Position numbers and translations under genes: made by a program. 33,778 nt of DNA, from IMG/VR virus record IMGVR_UViG_2531839450_000016, positions 1 through 33,778 of that record. The stretch is one strand, 5' to 3'. This document shows, in pieces, positions 7,525 to 30,041 of the stretch. Below the pieces are notes generated by a model that saw only the letters and a program-made list of their open reading frames with translations, was not told the origin of the DNA and did not search any database. This stretch comes from a virus. Lineage: Duplodnaviria; Heunggongvirae; Uroviricota; Caudoviricetes. Numbering within the stretch: position 1 is the stretch's first letter; every line of letters begins with the position of its first letter.

Positions 7525-8097
7525 TCAGGGGGATTCATTGCTCTTATTTGCCGGAAATTTTCTATAAATTGTGGAAACACCCACATCAAAAATCAGTGCA
7601 ATACGCTGTCTTGATTCTCCGGCCTCGAGTAAACGTCCAATCTGTGCCCACTGTTCGGTGGTCAACTTAGGACGGCGTCCACCTACTCTGCCTTTAGCAC
7701 GAGCTGCAGCCAGCCCCGCCCTGGTACGTTCAACTATCAGTTCGCGTTCCATTTCAGCCAGGGCCCCCATGACATGAAAAAAGAAACGGCCCATTGGGGT
7801 GCTGGTATCAATACTGTCAGTCAGGCTTCGGAAATTCACGCCACGCTGGCGCAGCTCTTCTATCAGCGTAACGAGATGCCGCATACTGCGCCCCAACCTG
7901 TCCAGCTTCCAGACAACCAGAGTGTCACCTGCCGATAATGTCCTGAGCAGTTTTTTCAGTCCCGGTCTGTCGGACTTAGTGCCACTGATTTTGTCCTCAA
8001 AAATCCGCTCACATCCCGCGCAGTTCAGTGCATTACGTTGCAAATCGGTGTTCTGGTCATTTGTTGACACGCGTACATAGCCAATAAGCATGATCAA
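7525..8097 (-). CDS. Serine DNA invertase (Hin/Gin/Cin/Pin family)
   Basis: 190-aa ORF with the resolvase/invertase catalytic N-terminus (GYVRVSTNDQ...) and C-terminal HTH (SRQRIALIFDVGVSTIYR); lies beside a segment bounded by inverted gix/cix-like sites. Confidence 0.9.
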   Translation of the reverse strand: MIMLIGYVRVSTNDQNTDLQRNALNCAGCERIFEDKISGTKSDRPGLKKLLRTLSAGDTLVVWKLDRLGRSMRHLVTLIEELRQRGVNFRSLTDSIDTSTPMGRFFFHVMGALAEMERELIVERTRAGLAAARAKGRVGGRRPKLTTEQWAQIGRLLEAGESRQRIALIFDVGVSTIYRKFPANKSNESP

Positions 8098-8146
8098 TCC
8101 CCTGAATAAAAACCGGGGATGATGCCAGTTAGCTGTTACCTCTGCA

Positions 8147-8172
8147 TTTTCTTAAACGTTGGTTTGGGAGAA
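8147..8172. repeat. Invertase crossover site 1 (cix/gix-like 26-mer)
   Basis: TTTTCTTAAACGTTGGTTTGGGAGAA; its reverse complement shares the 14-nt TTCTCCCAAACCAA with the site at 9677-9702; fits the TTnTnnnAAACC-nn-GGTTTnnnAnAA pattern of Din-family sites. Confidence 0.7.
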
Positions 8173-8526
8173 GCGGCAAAACGAAATGTGGGTAACGAGC
8201 AAAACCAAATTCCGGATATGGCGGCGTTTGCCAGTTCACTTTCATCAACGGGTTTTCAAAAACTCCCTTCAGGTCTGATTATTCAGTGGGGTATAGTCAG
8301 TGGAGCATCAAACTATACGGTGACTTACCCGGTAACATTCCCAAATCGTTCACTTGCGCTGTTGGCTGTACCACATACAACGTCGGTGGCGGGTATATCT
8401 GCAATGGGCATAGCGAACTGTTCTGATATCAGCAAATCACAGTTCTATATAATTGTTGGCGGTATATCTCAGGGAGAAATTGTCAAATATGAAAGGTCCT
8501 GTTTTTGGGTAGCAATCGGTGTATAG
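8161..8526 (+). CDS. Silent alternative tail-fibre C-terminal cassette (would fuse to H after inversion)
   Basis: Open frame begins at the crossover site with GLGE, the same junction residues as in H (..AYLGLGELS..); shares LIIQWG with the expressed H C-terminus; has no constant N-terminal part in this orientation. Confidence 0.6.
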   Translation, partial: GLGEAAKRNVGNEQNQIPDMAAFASSLSSTGFQKLPSGLIIQWGIVSGASNYTVTYPVTFPNRSLALLAVPHTTSVAGISAMGIANCSDISKSQFYIIVGGISQGEIVKYERSCFWVAIGV

Positions 8527-8534
8527 GTATATCT

Positions 8535-8930
8535 ATGATTTATTTCTCAAAATCGACTAATGGTTTTTTCTTCGATGGTATAAACAGTGACATGCCTGCT
8601 GACATTGTTGAGATATGTACAGACTTATACAATGAATTAATTGCCGGACAGCAGGAAGGGGGTAAATTAATTACGTCAGATGAAAATGGTTTACCGGTAC
8701 TAAAATCCCCGGCGATTGATTATGTCGCACGTGCGGAAAATCAGCGAATGCAGTTACTTGCTCATGCCGATAATGTCACAGCTGACTGGCGAGTGGAATT
8801 AATGCTTGGTGATATTAGCAGTACAGATAAAGAAAAACTATCCGCCTGGATGGACTACAAAAAAGAAGTAAAAGCCGTCGACACTTCGACGGCTCCTGAG
8901 ATTAGCTGGCCTGAGTTACCGGAGGTGTAG
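8535..8930 (+). CDS. Alternative tail-fibre assembly chaperone
   Basis: ORF starting MIYFSKSTNGFFFDG..., ending ...VDTSTAPEISWPELPEV, the typical C-terminus of tail-fibre assembly proteins; follows the silent cassette. Confidence 0.7.
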   Translation: MIYFSKSTNGFFFDGINSDMPADIVEICTDLYNELIAGQQEGGKLITSDENGLPVLKSPAIDYVARAENQRMQLLAHADNVTADWRVELMLGDISSTDKEKLSAWMDYKKEVKAVDTSTAPEISWPELPEV

Positions 8931-9339
8931 GCCATTCAATATCTGGAGCACTGGAGGTATCCACCAGTTCCAGTGCGTCCAGGTAATCCAGCCACAAATT
9001 ATATAGTGCCAGTTCCTCACCTTTCAGACGACCAATAGCTGCTTTGCCAGGCCATTGCTTACTGTTCATGTATTCGTTGGCCTGATTAAGCAATAATTGC
9101 CTTTCTGTTTCTGCCTGTTGAATAAGTTCTTCATGTGATGGTGGAGGTATTAGTGCCCATGTGGGTAATCCATTTTTTCCTGCAACACGAATTTTGTCAT
9201 CTGGGGGCGTATTGATTGCAAATTCATTATAAACATCATCACTGACAGCCAGAGCATCATCTGGCCATGAATTTGCATTAATGTAATCATCCTTAAGCGC
9301 AGGATTCACAAAAATGTTTAAAGATGGACTATAAAACAT
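8902..9339 (-). CDS. Tail-fibre assembly chaperone (expressed orientation)
   Basis: 145-aa ORF immediately downstream of H, ending ...LVDTSSAPDIEWPTPPV. Confidence 0.8.
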   Translation of the reverse strand: MFYSPSLNIFVNPALKDDYINANSWPDDALAVSDDVYNEFAINTPPDDKIRVAGKNGLPTWALIPPPSHEELIQQAETERQLLLNQANEYMNSKQWPGKAAIGRLKGEELALYNLWLDYLDALELVDTSSAPDIEWPTPPVTQAS

Positions 9340-9340
9340 A

Positions 9341-10738
9341 TTACACCCCTATAGCGATATAACGACCTAATACAGCGTTTGCAGCAGTCGCTATGCTTGA
9401 AAAACCGCGGAACTGATTTGATGTAATTGCAGAAGCCGACAGGATTCCTGCGCCTGAAGGTGTATGCCCCACATGACTAACTATCATTCCATAACATGCT
9501 GACGGAAAGGCAAAAGGAAAATCATTAAGATATCCGGCATCTTCACCACCAGACCCACCAAATCTCGCCTGCCCCCACTGAATAATCAGTGTTCTCCGGG
9601 AACCTGAAATAATTAACGGAATCGTTACATACCCATTCAGACCAATGACACCCGATGCAGTGCCAGCCAGAGATAATTCTCCCAAACCAAGGTATGCGAG
9701 AAGACCAGCTACATCCTTTCCACTCAAATTAGTCAGCGTATTGTCCAGCGGTTGTTTACCTGCTAGCGCATTAAGCATTGTCGTGGCAAAGTTCGGGTCA
9801 TTCCCCAGCGCCGCCGCCAGTTCGTTCAATGTATCCAGTGCCGCAGGTGCAGAACCCACCATTCCTGCAATCGCCGATTTCACAAAAGCCGTAGTGGCAA
9901 TCTGTGTATTGTTGACCGACTGTGCCGCAGTAGGTGCTGTTGGCGTTCCGGTAAGTGCCGGACTCGACAGCGGCGCTTTCAGTGCCAGCGCATTATTAAT
10001 AGTGGTACTGAATTTCGGGTCATTGTTAATGGCTGCGGCAATTTCTTTCAGCGTGTCCAGCGTGGCTGGCGCACCATTAATCAGGGTCGTCAGTGCCGCC
10101 TGAACAAACGCGGTCGTAGCAAGTTGCGTGGTATTATTCCCCACCGCTGGCGTTGGCGCTTTGGGGGTTCCGGTAAATGTCGGGCTGGCTTTTGGCGCGT
10201 ACTGTGAATGTGGGTCCTGTGCAGCAAGATGTTTTGCCATCAGGTCAACCACGTACACCTTCAGCTCCAGTACCTTGTCATCCACATACTTGCGGGTTGC
10301 CAGCACTACGGCAGGGTCGATTTTCAGGGTGATATTGTCCGTGCTGCTGGTAATCAGCACCATGCGCACGGTCTGGGTACGCCCGCTGCCTTCAGCCAGT
10401 TGCGGCTTATAGCTTTCCGGGCAGTTGCCCACGGCAATCAATGCCCCGGACTCATCAAACAGACCCACTTCACGTATCCACCAACCGCCCTCGTTTTCAG
10501 GGATCACCTGTTCAGCAATAATCTGGCTGCTGTTCTGCGGGTCGATATAGAGCATATTCAGCGCAGCCCGGCGTTTCTCATTTACTAATGCTGTCTGCTT
10601 TGCGTCCGGCGTTGGCAATGTTCCGCCGCCATCGCCGACCGCCATATGGGTAATTTTTAAAGGCACACCGAGCGCGGCGGCGCTGGCAAGTTTCGCCGCG
10701 CCAATATCCGTTAGCAGGGTATAAAATTTTGTGCTCAT
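9341..10738 (-). CDS. H: Tail fibre protein gpH (constant part 9703-10738, variable C-terminus 9341-9676 inside the invertible segment)
   Basis: 465-aa ORF between I and the assembly chaperone with repeated Ala/Thr-rich fibre motifs (e.g. TQLATTAFV and TQIATTAFV); crossover site embedded in the coding sequence. Confidence 0.85.
   Translation of the reverse strand: MSTKFYTLLTDIGAAKLASAAALGVPLKITHMAVGDGGGTLPTPDAKQTALVNEKRRAALNMLYIDPQNSSQIIAEQVIPENEGGWWIREVGLFDESGALIAVGNCPESYKPQLAEGSGRTQTVRMVLITSSTDNITLKIDPAVVLATRKYVDDKVLELKVYVVDLMAKHLAAQDPHSQYAPKASPTFTGTPKAPTPAVGNNTTQLATTAFVQAALTTLINGAPATLDTLKEIAAAINNDPKFSTTINNALALKAPLSSPALTGTPTAPTAAQSVNNTQIATTAFVKSAIAGMVGSAPAALDTLNELAAALGNDPNFATTMLNALAGKQPLDNTLTNLSGKDVAGLLAYLGLGELSLAGTASGVIGLNGYVTIPLIISGSRRTLIIQWGQARFGGSGGEDAGYLNDFPFAFPSACYGMIVSHVGHTPSGAGILSASAITSNQFRGFSSIATAANAVLGRYIAIGV
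9677..9702. repeat. Invertase crossover site 2 (cix/gix-like 26-mer) inside H
   Basis: TTCTCCCAAACCAAGGTATGCGAGAA, an inverted partner of 8147-8172. Confidence 0.7.
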
Positions 10739-22305: not shown

Positions 22306-23385
22306 CTAACATTGTTTACATAAATCAGAAAAACTACCACCGAAATAATACAGTGCAGATTTATCATTTAGTTCTTTAAAAACTTCACACGCACGCTGGT
22401 GTATCTCAATAGCACTAGATTTATTTCGCCCAATAATAACAGTCTCTTTTTCAGTACTATCGCCATCCAGAAAAGTCTTCAAAAGAAAATTAATAATAAA
22501 GTCTTCCTTTGGGAAAGAATAACCTATAAAGATCAACAGATCTGCTTGTCTCAACTGGGTAGAGGATTTCACAAAAGCTGTCTTAAAGTATTTATCCCCA
22601 TAGTCTTGTTCATTTGAAGGCAAGATAATATTTGGAACAACTTTTGCGTTTAATAATGAATCATAATCTATTTTAAAACCATCCCTTGCAGCAACAACCT
22701 CAAATCCTCCATTAAGCTTATACAAACCTATACCTTTAGGCTGAGGACACACTAATATATTATTATGATGCACAGGAAAACCCCGATTAACTGAACGTTC
22801 AGGGAATGCATGATGTAGCACTTTATCAATAACTATATCGTAGTTTGTTGTGACTACATCCAGTGCTGAAGCTTCCTGTAAACTCTTAAAGAAAGAAATA
22901 ATATTCCTTTTATTCTGCCCAAATTTTGCAGTTTGACTTAGCTTTAAATCATTTGCCGGTATTTTTTTTGCAAACTTATTTTTTACATATAGTTTTACTT
23001 GTGCCTCAAACAACTCAAGCGTATGCCTATCAAGATACGACGGCAATAAACTTGGATATCGCTTATAAACATCCAATGCATATTTAAAACTCTTGAAAAC
23101 ATTAGCTTTGTCATCTAAACCTGCATTAGCATCCGCCCATTTAAATTTAAGACTGTCGAACAAAGAAAAAAAACCATACTCATCAATATTTTCTAATGCT
23201 TCGTCTTCAGAGATGGAAAAGACTTCATTACTCAATGGGTATTTGTCATCCCAGGCTTTAGAAAATCCTGCTCCGAGAAAAACACATACTCTTCGCTCTC
23301 TTATTTTTGATTTCAATGTGGCGAAGGATGTAATTTCTAAATTATTAGGTGTCAAAATATCACCATCATAAGCAAAGCTAGTCAT
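22306..23385 (-). CDS. SIR2-like domain protein (putative NAD-dependent effector), second gene of an accessory cassette
   Basis: 359-aa ORF carrying, in order, VCVFLGAGFSKAW, VVTTNYD, YKLNGG and LLIFIGYSFPKED, which match the motif order of SIR2-like defence domains as I recall them; strongly AT-rich; starts 13 nt after the ATPase stop. Confidence 0.6.
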   Translation of the reverse strand: MTSFAYDGDILTPNNLEITSFATLKSKIRERRVCVFLGAGFSKAWDDKYPLSNEVFSISEDEALENIDEYGFFSLFDSLKFKWADANAGLDDKANVFKSFKYALDVYKRYPSLLPSYLDRHTLELFEAQVKLYVKNKFAKKIPANDLKLSQTAKFGQNKRNIISFFKSLQEASALDVVTTNYDIVIDKVLHHAFPERSVNRGFPVHHNNILVCPQPKGIGLYKLNGGFEVVAARDGFKIDYDSLLNAKVVPNIILPSNEQDYGDKYFKTAFVKSSTQLRQADLLIFIGYSFPKEDFIINFLLKTFLDGDSTEKETVIIGRNKSSAIEIHQRACEVFKELNDKSALYYFGGSFSDLCKQC

Positions 23386-23398
23386 GTTTTTCTCACGC

Positions 23399-24628
23399 TT
23401 AGTTTTTTATATCAAGAAAAGCTGGAACTAATCCAAATTCGCCACGTAAATATTTGGCAGACACTTTAGCATCTTTCCTTACAGAAAATACCGTAGCATT
23501 AGTTATTATCGACGCTTTAGATGAATCCTTGACTATAATATTAAGCTCATCTCTTCTAAACACATCATCTAATAAAGGAATATTATGTGTAGACATAATA
23601 AACTGCACACCATTTTTACGGCAGGTTTTATCAAATATTTTTTTGATTAGTGCACTTGCCAAAGAATAGTGAATAGATGAATCTATTTCATCCACATAAA
23701 GTGTAAAATCATATTCACTAGCCCAAATCAATATTGCTAAAAATGTTAAAACATTTAGTGTGCCTTGGGAAAAAAATTCATCCCTACGGTCAGGGCCTAT
23801 TCTAGTAAAATCACCATCATCATTTTTTATGAGATAAACAAATTTATACTCATTATCTTCGCCAAATCTTACAAATTCAACTTTATCTATATGCAGCGGC
23901 GACTGAATAACCATTTCATTATAGGTATTTAAAATTCTTTGACCACTCTCATTTAATTTTTCATTTCCTTCCTCACCTGATAACTGGCGCTTAAGTTGTC
24001 CTTCAACAAATTTAAGACTTGGATTTTTGAATTTTTCAGAGTAATAAGGCAATTGTTTTAATGCCCAGCGTTGGGTTTCAACAAGAGCATCAATTTCTAA
24101 AGATTTTGCAAAAGTTACAACAGCTCCACTTTCTCTTAAGACAGGATTAATCAACGACTCGTATTTTTTTAAGTCGGGCTTTTTGAAAACCAACCCATTT
24201 TCATTGCGAATAAAAATACATTGTTCCCTTGCATTTTTTCTTATCGGTCTAATGTATAAATACTCATCTACAATAACTTCATTTAAAACTGACACACCAT
24301 AACGGACGAAGTTTTTTTGCTCTTCATCAATCAGTATCGCTTCATAGGAAGTAGGTTTGTTACGACATTCCTTATTTAGAAGGAAAGGCATATGCAATTT
24401 GTGTAATGTGTCACTATGAATTGAATTTGCAAATTCAGTAATAGCATTTATTAATTGTGTTTTACCAACACCATTTCCGCCTATTAATGCGGCAAATCTG
24501 TTTACTCTTAAACCATTCGCTAATGTCACGATATGTTCAGGATGCTCATCCCCAATTGAGGAAGCAAAACTAAGAACCTGTCTTTCGCGAAAGCTCTTGT
24601 AATTTTCTAAACTGAATGCAACTAGCAT
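23399..24628 (-). CDS. ABC-type (AAA_15/AAA_21-like) ATPase, first gene of an accessory cassette
   Basis: 409-aa ORF; N-terminal MLVAFSLENYKSF followed by Walker A GGNGVGKT at about residue 50; C-terminal LYVDEIDSSIH (Walker B/D-loop) and STHN (H-loop-like); GAGGA ribosome-binding site 6 nt before the ATG; AT-rich. Confidence 0.7.
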   Translation of the reverse strand: MLVAFSLENYKSFRERQVLSFASSIGDEHPEHIVTLANGLRVNRFAALIGGNGVGKTQLINAITEFANSIHSDTLHKLHMPFLLNKECRNKPTSYEAILIDEEQKNFVRYGVSVLNEVIVDEYLYIRPIRKNAREQCIFIRNENGLVFKKPDLKKYESLINPVLRESGAVVTFAKSLEIDALVETQRWALKQLPYYSEKFKNPSLKFVEGQLKRQLSGEEGNEKLNESGQRILNTYNEMVIQSPLHIDKVEFVRFGEDNEYKFVYLIKNDDGDFTRIGPDRRDEFFSQGTLNVLTFLAILIWASEYDFTLYVDEIDSSIHYSLASALIKKIFDKTCRKNGVQFIMSTHNIPLLDDVFRRDELNIIVKDSSKASIITNATVFSVRKDAKVSAKYLRGEFGLVPAFLDIKN

Positions 24629-24940: not shown

Positions 24941-25618
24941 CTAGAACGTGACAGCCTTGTCAAAGCCAGAAATAATTGTATAGGAAATAGACGAGTTATC
25001 AGCCTTGTTCACTTTGAACTTGGCACCTTTGTAAGCGATAACATCACTTCCCTTAGAATCTACAGAAAAATCTGTTGTAAACGCTGCACGAGCCATATCG
25101 TTTGCAAACTCACGATAGGTAAACTTCATTACACCGTCTGCATTTCCATTGTATTCGATAGTCTTAACCAATGAGTTACTCACTCGACACAGCCCATCAG
25201 GAACACGCTTGATAGAAATTTCTGAGGCTGTATAAGAAGTGCCGTTTGGTGGTGATATCTCATTTTTTGCAGCATCGTAACTTACATAATCAACATAGGT
25301 GCCGATTTGTCCATAGATATTTTTTAGCGCAACAGCTTGAGGATTATGATGATTGCGGTAAATTCCATTCCCTTCGCTGCAATATGTACCTGCAGAGATA
25401 GAAGATAGCGCACCATTAGCCGCACCAAGCTCTAGTACGTCCGTTTTATATCCAGTAGCAGATGTTATGATGGGGTCGCCCATGTAGGCTGTAGCACTTT
25501 GCCCAATAGCAGGCTTCACCACTTCAATAGCTGTGATATTTCGGTTAGAAGCATGAGGCACGCAACCAGTTAGGATTACAGCAAGAGATATAGGTAACGC
25601 AATATGGTTAATTTTCAT
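24941..25618 (-). CDS. Lipoprotein of unknown function (accessory gene next to cos)
   Basis: Likely start at the internal Met MKINHIALPISLAVILTGC (signal peptide with lipobox LTGC); AT-rich; occupies the position of tin/old in P2. Confidence 0.6.
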   Translation of the reverse strand: MKINHIALPISLAVILTGCVPHASNRNITAIEVVKPAIGQSATAYMGDPIITSATGYKTDVLELGAANGALSSISAGTYCSEGNGIYRNHHNPQAVALKNIYGQIGTYVDYVSYDAAKNEISPPNGTSYTASEISIKRVPDGLCRVSNSLVKTIEYNGNADGVMKFTYREFANDMARAAFTTDFSVDSKGSDVIAYKGAKFKVNKADNSSISYTIISGFDKAVTF

Positions 25619-25731
25619 TTTTAGCCTATTATTCTTTTCTTGACAAAAAACGAGGCGATATCTGATTGACATCACCTCTCACTCATATGTAACCCTTTTT
25701 AAGTATTAAAAACAAGCATCTATTGACAAAA

Positions 25732-26317: not shown

Positions 26318-28732
26318 TTAATACAGGTTCCGCCACTTATCATCTTCCTGCAAACGCTGGTTCCGATAGAAGATACGCAGGCCTGCTCCTGACGGAATAC
26401 TGCCTCCGCGAAGGAGTAAATCGACCTCTTTCTCGCTGCCATCAAATCCTCTGGACTTCAGCTCATACACGAGCTGCAGTCGCTGATGGTCTGTAATTCG
26501 CTGTTTGTAGTCTTTACGCCGTTTCGGTTTCACCAGGCGTAACCTTGCTGCCAGTTCCCGGCACTCTTTTTTGCTCATACTGTGCAGGTAATCGTGCAAC
26601 TCCTTGTCATCCATGCGGGTAATATCCGTTCTGGTGTCCCCATCAGCTGATTTATCTTTCTCCTGTTGGTTCAAATTTTCAGCAAGGGGACAGTTATTGC
26701 CACGAGTCCAAGGGGCGCAAGCGCCCTGGTCGGCTACCGCCTCCTGAACGTCAACGGCCTTACGAACCATTTTCCACTTCACTGCATGAGTGCAGATCTT
26801 GCCCTCTGAAATGGGTGACCAGATGCCATAAATACGAATACCGTGATCGCCATAGGCGGTCGGCTCTTCGTTGATTTCATAAGCGGTTCTGATGAGGTGA
26901 TATTTACGGGGAACCAGTACGCCGCCCTGCTTCATGATGTAGGAGGCAAAACAACCAGCATCAGCAGCAGCCAGGATGGCATCAAGGCGCGGGTTATCCA
27001 GTACCGGCGCACCTGCTTTTTTGTCCCCCTGTTGCCTTGCCGCCTGACCAGCCAGCAATCGCAGTTCACGGTAAGCCTGACGCCCCGGAATGCCAAAGAA
27101 GCGGAATTGCTGAACACGATGCAGAGACGCCCAGGCATTAACGTATTCAGCGTTATCACGCAGGGATTTACCCGTTTCCTTGCTGATCTCACCAGCCAGA
27201 CCACGCCCGTCAATGTTCTTACTGATGTATTTCGCGATGTAGCTTGTTGGCGTACCTTTGCGCGGGTTTATCAGCTCAGACTTAAAGCGTGGTCCCGTGT
27301 TATTACCCAGCTCCTCGCGGTCTTCACGAATGGCAAACTTACGCAACAAAGCAGTAATGGCTCGGCGATCTTTTTTGCGCATAAAACACAACAGGTGCCA
27401 GTGAACTGTACCGTCATGATGCGGCTCAGCCACCCGCACGCCATACCAGCGCAATCCGGCTTTGTGCATCGCTTTACGAAATGCAGCAAACATGCCGACC
27501 AGATAATCACTGCTTTGTCTTACCGTCGCGTTTGTCCAGGTCGGGTTTGGTCTGCCGTTATTTAGCGTGGAATGGAAACGTGACGGACAGGTGATGGTGT
27601 AGAAAACGGCGCAGTCACCGCGCATTTCCGCGATAAGCTCCAGACCTTTAACACAGGCCATCATCTCATTGCGGCGATGCGCAGGGTTGCTGCTGCTGGC
27701 GTTTACCACATCCTCCATGTCCAGCGTGTCGCCGTCTTCGTTCACCAGTTCATGAGAACGGAAAAACTCCAGCGACTTACGGCGCTGCTCACGTTTATGC
27801 AACACGGCTTCATAGCTGACATAGGGAGATACTTTTTTGCTGACAAGGCAGACAGCACGCAACTGCTCTTCCCGCCATTCGCAACGCATCTTCCATAATT
27901 TCCGATACCACCAGTCGGCGCATAACATACGCGCCAGCGAACCCGGAATGAGTTCATAAGGCACGGGTTTACGGCGGTTTCTTTTCCGACGGAGTTGCTC
28001 AAACGCAGGCGGGATAACATCCAGACGCAGGGTTTCCGCTGCCACCTTTTCCCATGTCTTGCGGATTTCTTCTGGCGTAACATCATCGGTGGCATACAAA
28101 TCGCCACAAGCTGTATCAAGGCACATGCTCATATGCGCAGCTACCAAGGTGGACAGGCGTTTCACCTGATCCTGACTCATTTCAGGCAGGATCAGCAGGC
28201 CGTCCAGCCCTTCATGGCTTGCCATAAAGCGAAAAGAAGTGGATAGCTGACTGTCGCGTACATGCTCCAGTCGTTCCAAGCATGGCTTAATCGTCTCACG
28301 CAAATAGCGGGAATAAGCCTTTGGCCTGCCCAGGCTGCTGAAGTATTTAATACGTTGCATCAGCGGCTTGCTGATATGGGAAGGCTGGGCGTTGACGTCC
28401 GCCAGAATGGCCATGTCTGGATTAAAACGCTGCTGCTCATGCGCCAGCTTTGCCCGGCTAATTAGCTTATCCTGCTCCATTTCGCGTTGGACAGGATCAC
28501 GGGATTCATTAAAGAAATAACGCTCCCAGACCTGATCACTCAGTGCCTCGCGGCGTAGTTGTTCCTGCTCGTTATCGGCAGCGTACAGAGTGATCAGGTT
28601 TGAAAGCGCAGAAACCGGCGCAACTTCCGCCGGGTCCAGATAAGGGTTAATGGCCTTTTTCGGGCTGTTCCATGAGAATGCTGCGGCGACCTCGTTAAAG
28701 CCGCTGCAGTTGTTCATATCAGCATGGCTCAT
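26318..28732 (-). CDS. A: Replication initiation endonuclease gpA (rolling-circle initiator)
   Basis: Large ORF with a His-rich motif ([14 protein letters not shown]) consistent with a rolling-circle Rep metal site; probable start ATG at 28730-28732, overlapping the Dam stop (ATGA). Confidence 0.9.
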
Positions 28733-29586
28733 GCACGCACTCCGTACACGACGGAACAATCCACGCCACGCGAAGGATCAAATCCTACCCAGCAGCGCGG
28801 CCCGGAAACAGCGATGATTTCTGTTGCTGATTTACTCTCACCAGCTGCTACGCCGATGCTGCGTTTTACCTTGATATAGTGGTGAGTAAAATTGCGATAC
28901 AGCGAACGGATCAGGGATGTGTCACTGTTAGAAACAATGACCGGATGTCCTTCTGATGACCGATGTTCAAGAACGGATGCCAGGTGATACTGGTCATCTT
29001 CAGTAAAGCCGTCAGCGTGATAGCCGGAAAACGTACCGTCATAAGGCGGATCGCAATACACCACATCCCCCGCCTTCAACATCGCCAGCGTTTCATCAAA
29101 GCTGGCGCAGATAAACGTTGCTCGCTGGGCTTTTTCTGCAAAAGCGCGAATTTCTTTTTCAGGGAAATACGGATTTTTATAATTACCGTAGGGAATGTTG
29201 AAATGCCCGCTCTTGTTATAGCGACATAACCCACGGTAACCGTGACGATTGAGATACAGGAAATATACCGCTTTCATGAAATCAGTAATTTCAGTTGAGT
29301 AATTAAACTCCTGCCTTATGTTGTAATAAGCCACCTCCCTGTTTGCGATCTCAAATAAAACTTTGGCGCGAGATATAAACAATTCACAATCAGCGGCAAC
29401 CTTTTTATAGAGGTTGATTAAATCAGGATTAATATCCGCAACCAGATAGCAGGGATAATCCGTCTCCATCATCACAGCACAGGAACCCGCGAAAGGTTCA
29501 ACTAGTCGCGGACCAGCAGGAAGATGTTTTTTCAGTTCGGACATTACGGCGGTTTTATTTCCCGCCCATTTCAGGATGGTGCTCAT
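28729..29586 (-). CDS. dam: DNA adenine methyltransferase (Dam family)
   Basis: From the internal Met: [11 protein letters not shown]... (the N-terminal motif typical of Dam) and DPPY catalytic motif (VYCDPPYDG); start ATG overlaps the stop of the TraR-like frame (ATGA). Confidence 0.85.
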
Positions 29587-29808
29587 ACAGCACCTCCGTT
29601 GTAATGTTTGCCTTTCAGCTCTGCGATTTCCTGACAGGTAATGCAAAGCTGCACCCGGAATGGCACGGCGGCGTGCTGGCGGAATTGGCGCTTCACACTC
29701 AACGCAAAGCACGCGGGACACGCCCGGCGTTTTGGCACGGGCAGCACGGATATGGCGCTGGCGTTCTTCTTCAACGCGCTGCTGTACGAGATCCATTGCA
29801 TCAGCCAT
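29583..29808 (-). CDS. TraR/DksA-like C4 zinc-finger protein, apparently frameshifted in this sequence
   Basis: The N-terminal half in one frame (..LCVECEAPIPPARRRAIPG) and the C-terminal half in the +1 frame (..QLCITCQEIAELKGKHY..) together match the TraR pattern C-x2-C-x17-C-x2-C; the frames switch near 29650-29660 at a CCC/GG run. Confidence 0.5.
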
Positions 29809-30041
29809 TAGTGGATCTCCTGCGCTTCGTTCTGGATTGCTTCAGCAGTCACACGCAGCAGTTCTGCCGCTTCCACGTGGTTTAGCTGACGGGATGAGAT
29901 ATGACACGCCAGGCTATCAAGGCGAGCTGCCATTGCTTCAGCCCTTGCCCGGCGTTCTTCCAGACGAGCCTCTGTCAGTAAAATATTAAGCCCTGCGTCA
30001 TCCGGTCCGGTTTTAGTCGTGAGGGTTTCAATATTACGCAT
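29808..30041 (-). CDS. Hypothetical protein (77 aa from the ATG at 30039-30041)
   Basis: ORF with a CAGGAGA ribosome-binding site; stop overlaps the TraR-like start (TAATG). Confidence 0.5.
   Translation of the reverse strand: MRNIETLTTKTGPDDAGLNILLTEARLEERRARAEAMAARLDSLACHISSRQLNHVEAAELLRVTAEAIQNEAQEIH

Follow-up and report, generated by a model that had tools for sequence, protein, structure and literature searches.

Is the TraR/DksA-like zinc finger gene of this prophage split between two reading frames in the living strain or only in its deposited sequence? The window, i.e., the whole stretch of 33,778 nucleotides that was analyzed, is 100% identical to the GenBank draft ADUR01000036.1 over 6858 nt. 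The region containing the gene belongs to a P2/186-like (Peduoviridae) prophage of E. coli, in which it forms the distal portion of the early lytic operon. A preliminary description had offered a sequencing or assembly indel, a pseudogene, or a recoding event as explanations of the split. The first is favored by the intact gene in a read-based assembly, the Logan contig of run SRR040454; a pseudogene is possible, and recoding is unsupported.

Gene chain and overlapping codons

The genes and overlaps of the region are listed in Table 1. All coordinates of the preliminary description were confirmed on the minus strand of the window, including the positions of the three stop/start overlaps, and its identification of the four genes was backed by Pfam and NCBIfam profiles. 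The orf77 protein is 100% identical to a UC4224 prophage protein and is the counterpart of P2 Orf80, with 35% identity. The A protein was matched over its full length by tblastn. The methyltransferase matched TIGR00571 with 318 bits (cutoff, 114.85) at profile positions 1 to 266 of 267 and PF02086 with 250 bits; this near-full-length match above the cutoff, together with a DPPY catalytic motif, supports its prediction as a member of the Dam family.

The overlap of the orf77 stop codon with the ATG of the TraR-like gene, as TAATG or TGATG, and the ATGA at the TraR/Dam junction were both present in 78 of 78 relatives sampled via the neighboring gene, and the ATGA at the Dam/A junction was present in most relatives sampled in this way, indicating that the overlaps are not due to chance. 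P2 has the same kind of gene overlaps, of 1 and 4 nt. Judging from these comparisons, the chain of overlapping genes is a standard conserved trait of P2-like early operons. With the TraR stop codon located on the Dam start codon, coupled translation would be possible. Translational coupling in the chain, as had been proposed, is plausible, and the TraR-like gene and Dam also have predicted Shine-Dalgarno sequences of their own.

Table 1. Features of the early operon region, with positions in the window
Feature	Position	Strand	Description
orf77	29808..30041	-	DUF2732 protein, 77 aa; Pfam PF10809, 101 bits
orf77 stop codon (TAA)	29810-29808	-	one-base overlap with TraR ATG (TAATG; CATTA at 29806-29810 on plus strand)
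Shine-Dalgarno of TraR-like gene	29817-29820		GGAG
TraR/DksA-like gene, 5' part	29653..29808	-	codons 1-52; N-terminal helix (D3xxD6xV8) and first CxxC
TraR/DksA-like gene, 3' part	29583..29654	-	+1 frame; second CxxC and C-terminal helix
Stop codon of +1 frame (TGA)	29583-29585	-	overlaps Dam ATG
TraR/Dam overlap (ATGA)	29583-29586	-	TraR-frame stop and Dam ATG; TCAT on plus strand
Shine-Dalgarno of Dam	29593-29597		GGAGG
Dam	28729..29586	-	Dam-family N6-adenine DNA methyltransferase, 285 aa; TIGR00571, PF02086
Dam/A overlap (ATGA)	28729-28732	-	Dam stop and A ATG; TCAT on plus strand
A	26318..28732	-	replication endonuclease, 804 aa, P2 gpA family; PF05840, 424.7 bits
ORF as sequenced	28729..29808	-	359 aa; TraR 1-52, 22 out-of-frame residues, complete Dam

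The TraR-like gene as deposited

In the deposited sequence, the frame opened by the ATG at 29808 reads MADAMDLV...CVECEAPIPPARRRAIPG, continues with out-of-frame residues, and contains no stop codon until the end of Dam. Both the split between two frames and the resulting fusion of the TraR N terminus to Dam had been predicted, and both were borne out, the fusion ORF being 359 aa long. A tblastn search with an intact relative placed residues 1 to 55 in frame -2 and residues 53 to 75 in frame -3, and the 3' part was 100% identical to residues 53 to 75 of the intact protein. The ATG frame encodes CVEC, the first CxxC, and the +1 frame encodes CITC, the second; CxxC-x17-CxxC is not on one polypeptide. 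As sequenced, the gene gave a partial match of 23.9 bits to PF01258, below the cutoff of 24.9, and 44 bits to TIGR02419, below the cutoff of 59.7. The fusion sequence has an exact entry in UniParc (UPI0002F9DAD9), and an exact look-up among the called genes of the assemblies index found none on record, leaving the UniParc entry as the only one.

Nature and position of the gap

Alignments showed that one GT/TG dinucleotide is absent at window positions 29652-29654 (minus strand), where relatives have GGGTGTGC and the window has GGGTGC. The site corresponds to positions 82949-82951 of ADUR01000036.1 (coordinate offset, +53297) and falls in the conserved Pro-Gly-Val codons between the two Cys pairs. 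E. coli AR_0017, Klebsiella phage 4LV2017, and Salmonella phage RE-2010 all have the two bases, and the E. coli and phage matches listed all span 273 nt, compared with 271 nt of the query. The frame switch had been mapped to a C/G homopolymer run, and it does adjoin a GGG run (29654-29656), but the actual change is the loss of a tandem dinucleotide, GT, from a short GTGTG repeat. A homopolymer indel of one base more or less, which had been named as the change that would restore the gene, was wrong in detail and was rejected, since the alignments show that two bases (GT) are absent.

Early pyrosequencing classically erred in the length of homopolymers, and the loss of GT is not an error of this kind; the loss of a dinucleotide is a change that replication slippage can make in a living cell. 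Both observations count against an error of the deposit.

The intact gene and its homologues

With the two bases restored, as in the Logan contig or in E. coli AR_0017, which differs from the window in the TraR-like gene by these two bases alone, both profiles passed their cutoffs (PF01258, 43 bits versus 24.9; TIGR02419, 67.1 versus 59.7). Intact alleles from P2-like prophages of E. coli, Klebsiella, and Salmonella (WP_000752619.1; RE-2010 ADQ92384.1) share 95 to 100% nucleotide identity, have GGGTGTGC at the site, and encode 75 aa in a single frame. The intact protein matched TraR at about 2e-9 (structures 5W1S and 6N57) and YbiI at 4e-11 (2KGO). F-plasmid TraR and E. coli YbiI are homologues by sequence, and the ...ARR.A(I/F)PGV.LC..CQ... 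core spans the deletion site. TraR, with a complete DxxDxA motif, is plasmid borne; YbiI is a longer protein encoded on the chromosome. The N-terminal motif of the window protein, D3-A-M-D6-L-V8, retains both Asp residues of DxxDxA, with Val in place of Ala8.

The counterpart of the intact gene in P2 is Orf82, the TraR homologue of the Pe early operon, which follows the DUF2732 gene (Orf80) and precedes A. Orf82 shares 47% identity over 70 residues with the intact protein and has the same CxxC-x17-CxxC spacing. In P2, an extra gene, Orf81, is located between Orf80 and Orf82, and Orf83 occupies the place that Dam has after the TraR-like gene of the window; unlike Orf82, the gene in the window is interrupted, in its deposited form, by the 2-nt gap. 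Orf82 also lacks Ala8 of DxxDxA, yet it is active, binding to the DksA site of E. coli RNA polymerase and inhibiting rrnB P1 with an IC50 of 250 nM (PMC9239242). Judging from its homology to TraR and P2 Orf82, the intact gene would encode a normal small protein that binds in RNA polymerase's secondary channel, and this protein would need its N-terminal helix, C4 zinc knuckle, and C-terminal helix together.

Occurrence of the gap

The comparison with orthologous TraR-like genes of related prophages, which had been suggested as a check, gave a uniform result. Among 80 IMG/VR loci, picked via the neighboring DUF2732 gene, the 75-aa gene was intact in 78 and frameshifted in none. A BLAST search of the 61-nt junction against 5426 complete E. 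coli genomes matched 1039 genomes, none of which had the gap, and the best junction identity in these 1039 genomes was 96.8%, equivalent to the two gap columns. The deleted junction 24-mer had no exact match in GTDB representative genomes, IMG/VR, or JGI metagenomes; the intact 26-mer had at least 120 matches in IMG/VR. By these sequence comparisons, the TraR-like gene appears otherwise to be under clear purifying selection.

The rest of the prophage was also compared. A related prophage encodes 45 proteins, and the 42 others with a counterpart in the window matched it gap-free in one frame, nearly all at full length; TraR was the sole protein split between frames. The rest of the window contained no other indel, indicating that the deposit is not generally error prone, and this too counts against an error of the deposit at the TraR site. 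A generally error-prone assembly was rejected as a candidate because no other compared prophage gene was frameshifted.

Read-based assembly of SRR040454

Across 3835 nt, the alignment of the window with the Logan contig of SRR040454 was free of mismatches and contained one gap, of 2 nt, exactly at the TraR site; the contig encodes an intact 75-aa TraR (C35-x2-C38-x17-C56-x2-C59). The exact Dam protein of the window (EFZ70594.1) is on record in two contigs only, the deposit and this Logan contig, and the next-closest prophages, L139 and L140, show differences to the window at 29381 and 28379. The shared private alleles suggest that SRR040454 is apparently the same strain as the deposit. The A, T, and SIR2 proteins are common alleles and gave no further private link of SRR040454 to the strain, and a tail-fiber look-up for such a link returned the deposit alone. 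A literature search on ADUR00000000 found nothing.

Origin of the gap

The two-base gap is probably a consensus or assembly error of ADUR01000036.1. A read-based assembly of evidently the same strain contains the intact gene, making an error of the deposit the most likely origin. We infer that the gap lies in the deposit and not in the organism; at most, the gap is a variant that was not fixed in the culture. SRR040454 could be a sister isolate without a real mutation, which counts against an error of the deposit.

Genuine frameshifts in the TraR-like gene exist and likewise count against such an error. In E. coli KTE90/91, the same gene (ELG43259.1, 64 aa) is frameshifted 3 nt away, again within the Pro-Gly-Val-Gln codons. 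This allele differs from that of the window in that a single nucleotide is deleted (C of GTGCAG), the synonymous background is another one (CCTGGAGTG), and the frameshift leads to an early stop rather than to a fusion with Dam. Its occurrence on four contigs indicates that it is probably a real mutation.

A genuine and very recent private null mutation, in which slippage in GTGTG removed one GT and left a pseudogene, is conceivable but rather unlikely. The deposited record does contain the gap, what was lost is one unit of a tandem dinucleotide, and these codons were independently frameshifted in the KTE strains. Overexpressed P2 Orf82 has been reported to halt cell growth and lambda Orf73 to slow it (PMC9239242), suggesting that the loss of TraR in a lysogen could be tolerated or even favored. 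Ribosomes starting at the TraR ATG of such a mutant would produce the 359-aa fusion, and native Dam could still start at its own Shine-Dalgarno sequence and ATG. The null product would lack the C-terminal helix as well as the second CxxC, and the zinc knuckle could therefore not form. The Logan contig, which has the same private alleles and an intact gene, speaks against the null mutation. In addition, the deletion was found in no other genome or contig searched, and the gene is intact in all 78 sampled relatives, with apparently clear purifying selection.

If the GT deletion were real, the frameshift 3 nt away in KTE90/91 might mark the Pro-Gly-Val codons as a spot of recurrent inactivation, at which lysogens shed a growth-inhibiting RNA polymerase regulator, with the fusion of the TraR helix to Dam as a side product. 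We consider this a long shot.

It is scarcely credible that TraR(1-52)-linker-Dam was selected as a functional new protein, e.g., a methylase tethered to RNA polymerase via the TraR N-terminal helix. The ORF is open across the junction and the Dam part is intact, but a frame open over 22 codons is expected by chance with a probability of about 0.35 and is therefore unremarkable. The fusion is confined to one deposit, and an intact version is present in reads of the same lineage. Furthermore, binding of TraR to RNA polymerase requires its globular and C-terminal elements (PMC9239242).

Programmed ribosomal frameshifting (+1 or -2) at CCG GGU GCA, restoring TraR or setting a ratio of TraR to TraR-Dam, has virtually no probability and appears to be effectively refuted already by the comparative data: the two-frame layout occurs in none of the 1039 matched complete E. 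coli genomes and none of the 78 IMG/VR loci, and the codons of the site vary synonymously (CCG/CCA/CCT; GGT/GGA/GGG), indicating conservation as protein and not as a slippery sequence. Its sole support, that the wild-type protein would formally result from a -2 shift after GGU, is the automatic outcome of the removal of a single unit from a tandem repeat. Neither CCG-G nor GGU-G is a known slippery motif, and there is no notable RNA structure downstream, the 86 nt from the site folding at -25.9 kcal/mol (z = -1.0 versus shuffled sequences).

Implications

The main outcome is the flagging of a probable 2-nt error at ADUR01000036.1:82949-82951. This probable error strips a TraR/DksA-family gene from the annotation of the record and is the source of a spurious 359-aa TraR-Dam fusion in protein databases (UniParc UPI0002F9DAD9). 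The split gene carries little biological weight; a real deletion would amount to a null allele, in a single strain, of an accessory regulator encoded by the prophage.

Overlapping gene chain and the split TraR-like gene

The window holds a complete P2/186-like prophage, from ogr through integrase. The overlapping start and stop codons reported in its minus-strand gene chain in the preliminary description were borne out when the sequence was read: CATTA corresponds to TAATG on the minus strand, where the stop of the 77-aa ORF overlaps the ATG of the TraR-like gene, and TCAT corresponds to ATGA at both other sites (see table). These overlaps are kept in essentially all relatives and have parallels in P2. 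Each gene of the chain also has its own Shine-Dalgarno sequence, and translational coupling, conventional for such operons, is plausible.

The reported division of the TraR-like gene between two frames, with an open frame into Dam, was likewise confirmed. Translation from the ATG at 29808 gives MADAMDLVQQRVEEERQRHIRAARAKTPGVSRVLCVECEAPIPPARRRAIPG, followed by 22 unrelated residues and then Dam. The second part of TraR, 23 residues, lies in the +1 frame and stops on the Dam ATG. As deposited, the TraR-like part scores below the family cut-offs (PF01258, 23.9 versus 24.9 bits; TIGR02419, 44 versus 59.7 bits). The TraR protein of a related E. coli prophage, that of strain UC4224, matched the window with residues 1 to 55 in frame -2 and residues 53 to 75 in frame -3. 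It was the sole split protein; each of the other UC4224 prophage proteins with a counterpart in the window gave an ungapped match in a single frame, which was full-length for nearly all of them.

Features of the window discussed in the text
Feature	Position	Strand	Description
77-aa ORF		minus	DUF2732 protein; PF10809, 101 bits
77-aa ORF/TraR overlap	29806-29810	minus	TAATG
ORF as sequenced	28729-29808	minus	359 aa
Missing unit	29652-29654		One GT of a GTGTG repeat
Dam Shine-Dalgarno	29593-29597	minus	GGAGG
TraR/Dam overlap	29583-29586	minus	ATGA
Dam ORF		minus	Full-length Dam-family methyltransferase; TIGR00571, 318 bits; PF02086, 250 bits; DPPY motif present
Dam/A overlap	28729-28732	minus	ATGA
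Gene downstream of Dam		minus	P2-type replication protein A; PF05840, 425 bits
TraR-Dam fusion entry	28732-29808	minus	359 aa; UPI0002F9DAD9
244-aa ORF	24941-25675	minus	Lipoprotein-like N terminus (...LTGC...)
Cargo genes	22306-24628	minus	SIR2_2-domain protein, 359 aa; AAA_21 ATPase, 409 aa
Putative invertible segment	7528-9702		Host range, tail fibre
Inverted repeats	8147-8172, 9677-9702		26 nt, 81% complementary
Serine recombinase gene	7528-8091	minus	Adjoins tail-fibre genes

Nature of the gap

The region was aligned with E. coli AR_0017, Klebsiella phage 4LV2017 and Salmonella phage RE-2010. Exactly two bases are absent from the window, the three relatives having CCGGGTGTGCAG where the window has CCGGGTGCAG, and in AR_0017 the whole gene is identical except for these two bases. 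The gap falls in the codons for a conserved Pro-Gly-Val between both Cys pairs. The frame switch had been mapped to a C/G homopolymer; the gap does adjoin the GGG run, but a one-base homopolymer change is ruled out by the alignment, which shows loss of a GT dinucleotide.

Distribution among relatives

All matches listed for a 271-nt query, in phage records and 1240 E. coli records, spanned 273 nt. A 61-nt query centred on the junction matched 1039 of 5426 complete E. coli genomes at no more than 96.8% identity, which equals two gap columns. GTDB species representatives, IMG/VR and JGI metagenome contigs contained no exact copy of the 24-mer of the deleted junction; in IMG/VR the intact 26-mer had at least 120 matches.

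Eighty IMG/VR loci were selected through the neighbouring DUF2732 gene, so that the sample was unbiased towards TraR. An intact 75-aa gene, starting at the stop/ATG overlap and ending in ATGA on the Dam start, was found in 78 of them and a frameshifted TraR gene in none; the comparison with orthologues proposed earlier returned a single-frame gene. The codons at the site vary (CCG, CCA or CCT for Pro; GGT, GGA or GGG for Gly), indicating constraint on the protein and not on a slippery nucleotide sequence. The two remaining loci lack both TraR and Dam, and DUF2732 is followed directly by gene A. In six of the 80 loci the ORF at the Dam position has only 100 codons, and in a few it is truncated to other lengths; variation is therefore greater in the Dam slot than in that of TraR.

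Origin of the gap

The exact Dam protein (EFZ70594.1/WP_001345666.1) is recorded on two contigs only. One is ADUR01000036.1 (assembly GCA_000188855.2), which matches the window at 100% identity across 6858 nt, indicating that the window derives from this draft (record coordinate = window coordinate + 53297). The draft has no annotated gene between DUF2732 and Dam. The other contig, 3835 nt long, belongs to the Logan assembly of run SRR040454; it has zero mismatches to the window and a single 2-nt gap, exactly at the TraR site, and encodes an intact 75-aa protein. The next-closest prophages, which share the A protein of the window, differ at 29381 and 28379, two positions at which the Logan contig has the bases of the window. 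Judged by these matches, SRR040454 would therefore come from the same strain as the deposit or an immediate sibling. Its reads support GGGTGTGC, and the intact allele really exists in this material because the ancestral sequence would not arise again through random errors in reads.

The gap is most economically, and probably correctly, read as an error of consensus or assembly in the deposited sequence, or as a variant that was not fixed in the culture; the frameshift probably has no biological basis. Among the causes first suggested (indel, pseudogene, recoding), the intact Logan contig thus favours the indel.

A pseudogene arising by genuine private deletion in the strain is possible, but rather unlikely. 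SRR040454 is tied to the strain by sequence match and not by run metadata, and replication slippage can likewise remove a GT from a tandem repeat. Real frameshifts of this gene do exist: E. coli KTE90/91 has independently lost one nucleotide, the C of GTGCAG, 3 nt downstream from the position of the gap in the window (locus L126, 3001-3195, GCA_000352485.1), giving a truncated 64-aa product that stops 29 nt before Dam. Its presence on four contigs suggests a real mutation.

Restoration of TraR by ribosomal frameshifting is highly improbable: the two-frame layout occurs in no relative examined, the site has no nucleotide-level conservation, and folding of the 86 nt from the site is no stronger than in shuffled sequence (z = -1.0). 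That a -2 shift would, in formal terms, give back the wild-type protein is a simple consequence of losing one repeat unit.

Other features of the prophage

A two-gene cargo lies between portal gene Q and DinI/A. Against PADLOC, the AAA_21 ATPase matches AbiLi (2e-51) and the SIR2 protein gives weak matches to SIR2; the genes are likely an anti-phage defence pair in a variable spot of P2-like prophages. The UC4224 prophage has a DUF262 gene instead. The adjoining 244-aa ORF, called as 225 or 243 aa in related contigs, had no PADLOC match and no Pfam family on record in those contigs. At 7528-9702, where the serine recombinase gene lies, the inverted repeats flank the segment and resemble Cin/Gin crossover sites; it may be an invertible part of the tail fibre that governs host range.

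Predicted role of the intact gene

The restored protein exceeds the family cut-offs (PF01258, 43 bits; TIGR02419, 67 bits) and matches structures of F-plasmid TraR (5W1S and 6N57; E about 2e-9) and E. coli YbiI (2KGO; E = 4e-11). P2 Orf82, its positional counterpart in the early operon of P2, is 47% identical to it. Like other phage TraR homologues, Orf82 binds RNA polymerase in the secondary channel, at the DksA site, and inhibits rRNA promoters independently of ppGpp (PMC9239242). For this, TraR relies on a C4 zinc globular domain together with two helices, one N-terminal and carrying a DxxDxA motif, the other C-terminal (PMC9239242). In the window protein the motif reads D3xxD6xV8; Ala8 is missing, as it is in Orf82. 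By this resemblance, the intact gene would encode an RNA polymerase binder of the TraR/P2 Orf82 type.

A product made without the two bases would have neither the C-terminal helix nor the second CxxC and would therefore not function. If the bases are truly absent, translation that starts at the TraR ATG would continue into Dam and yield a fusion. Dam has its own Shine-Dalgarno sequence and ATG. The fusion, which we consider spurious, is an active UniParc entry that clusters with Dam proteins; the gap is thus propagating into protein resources. The overlapping chain with its TraR-like gene is itself an ordinary feature.
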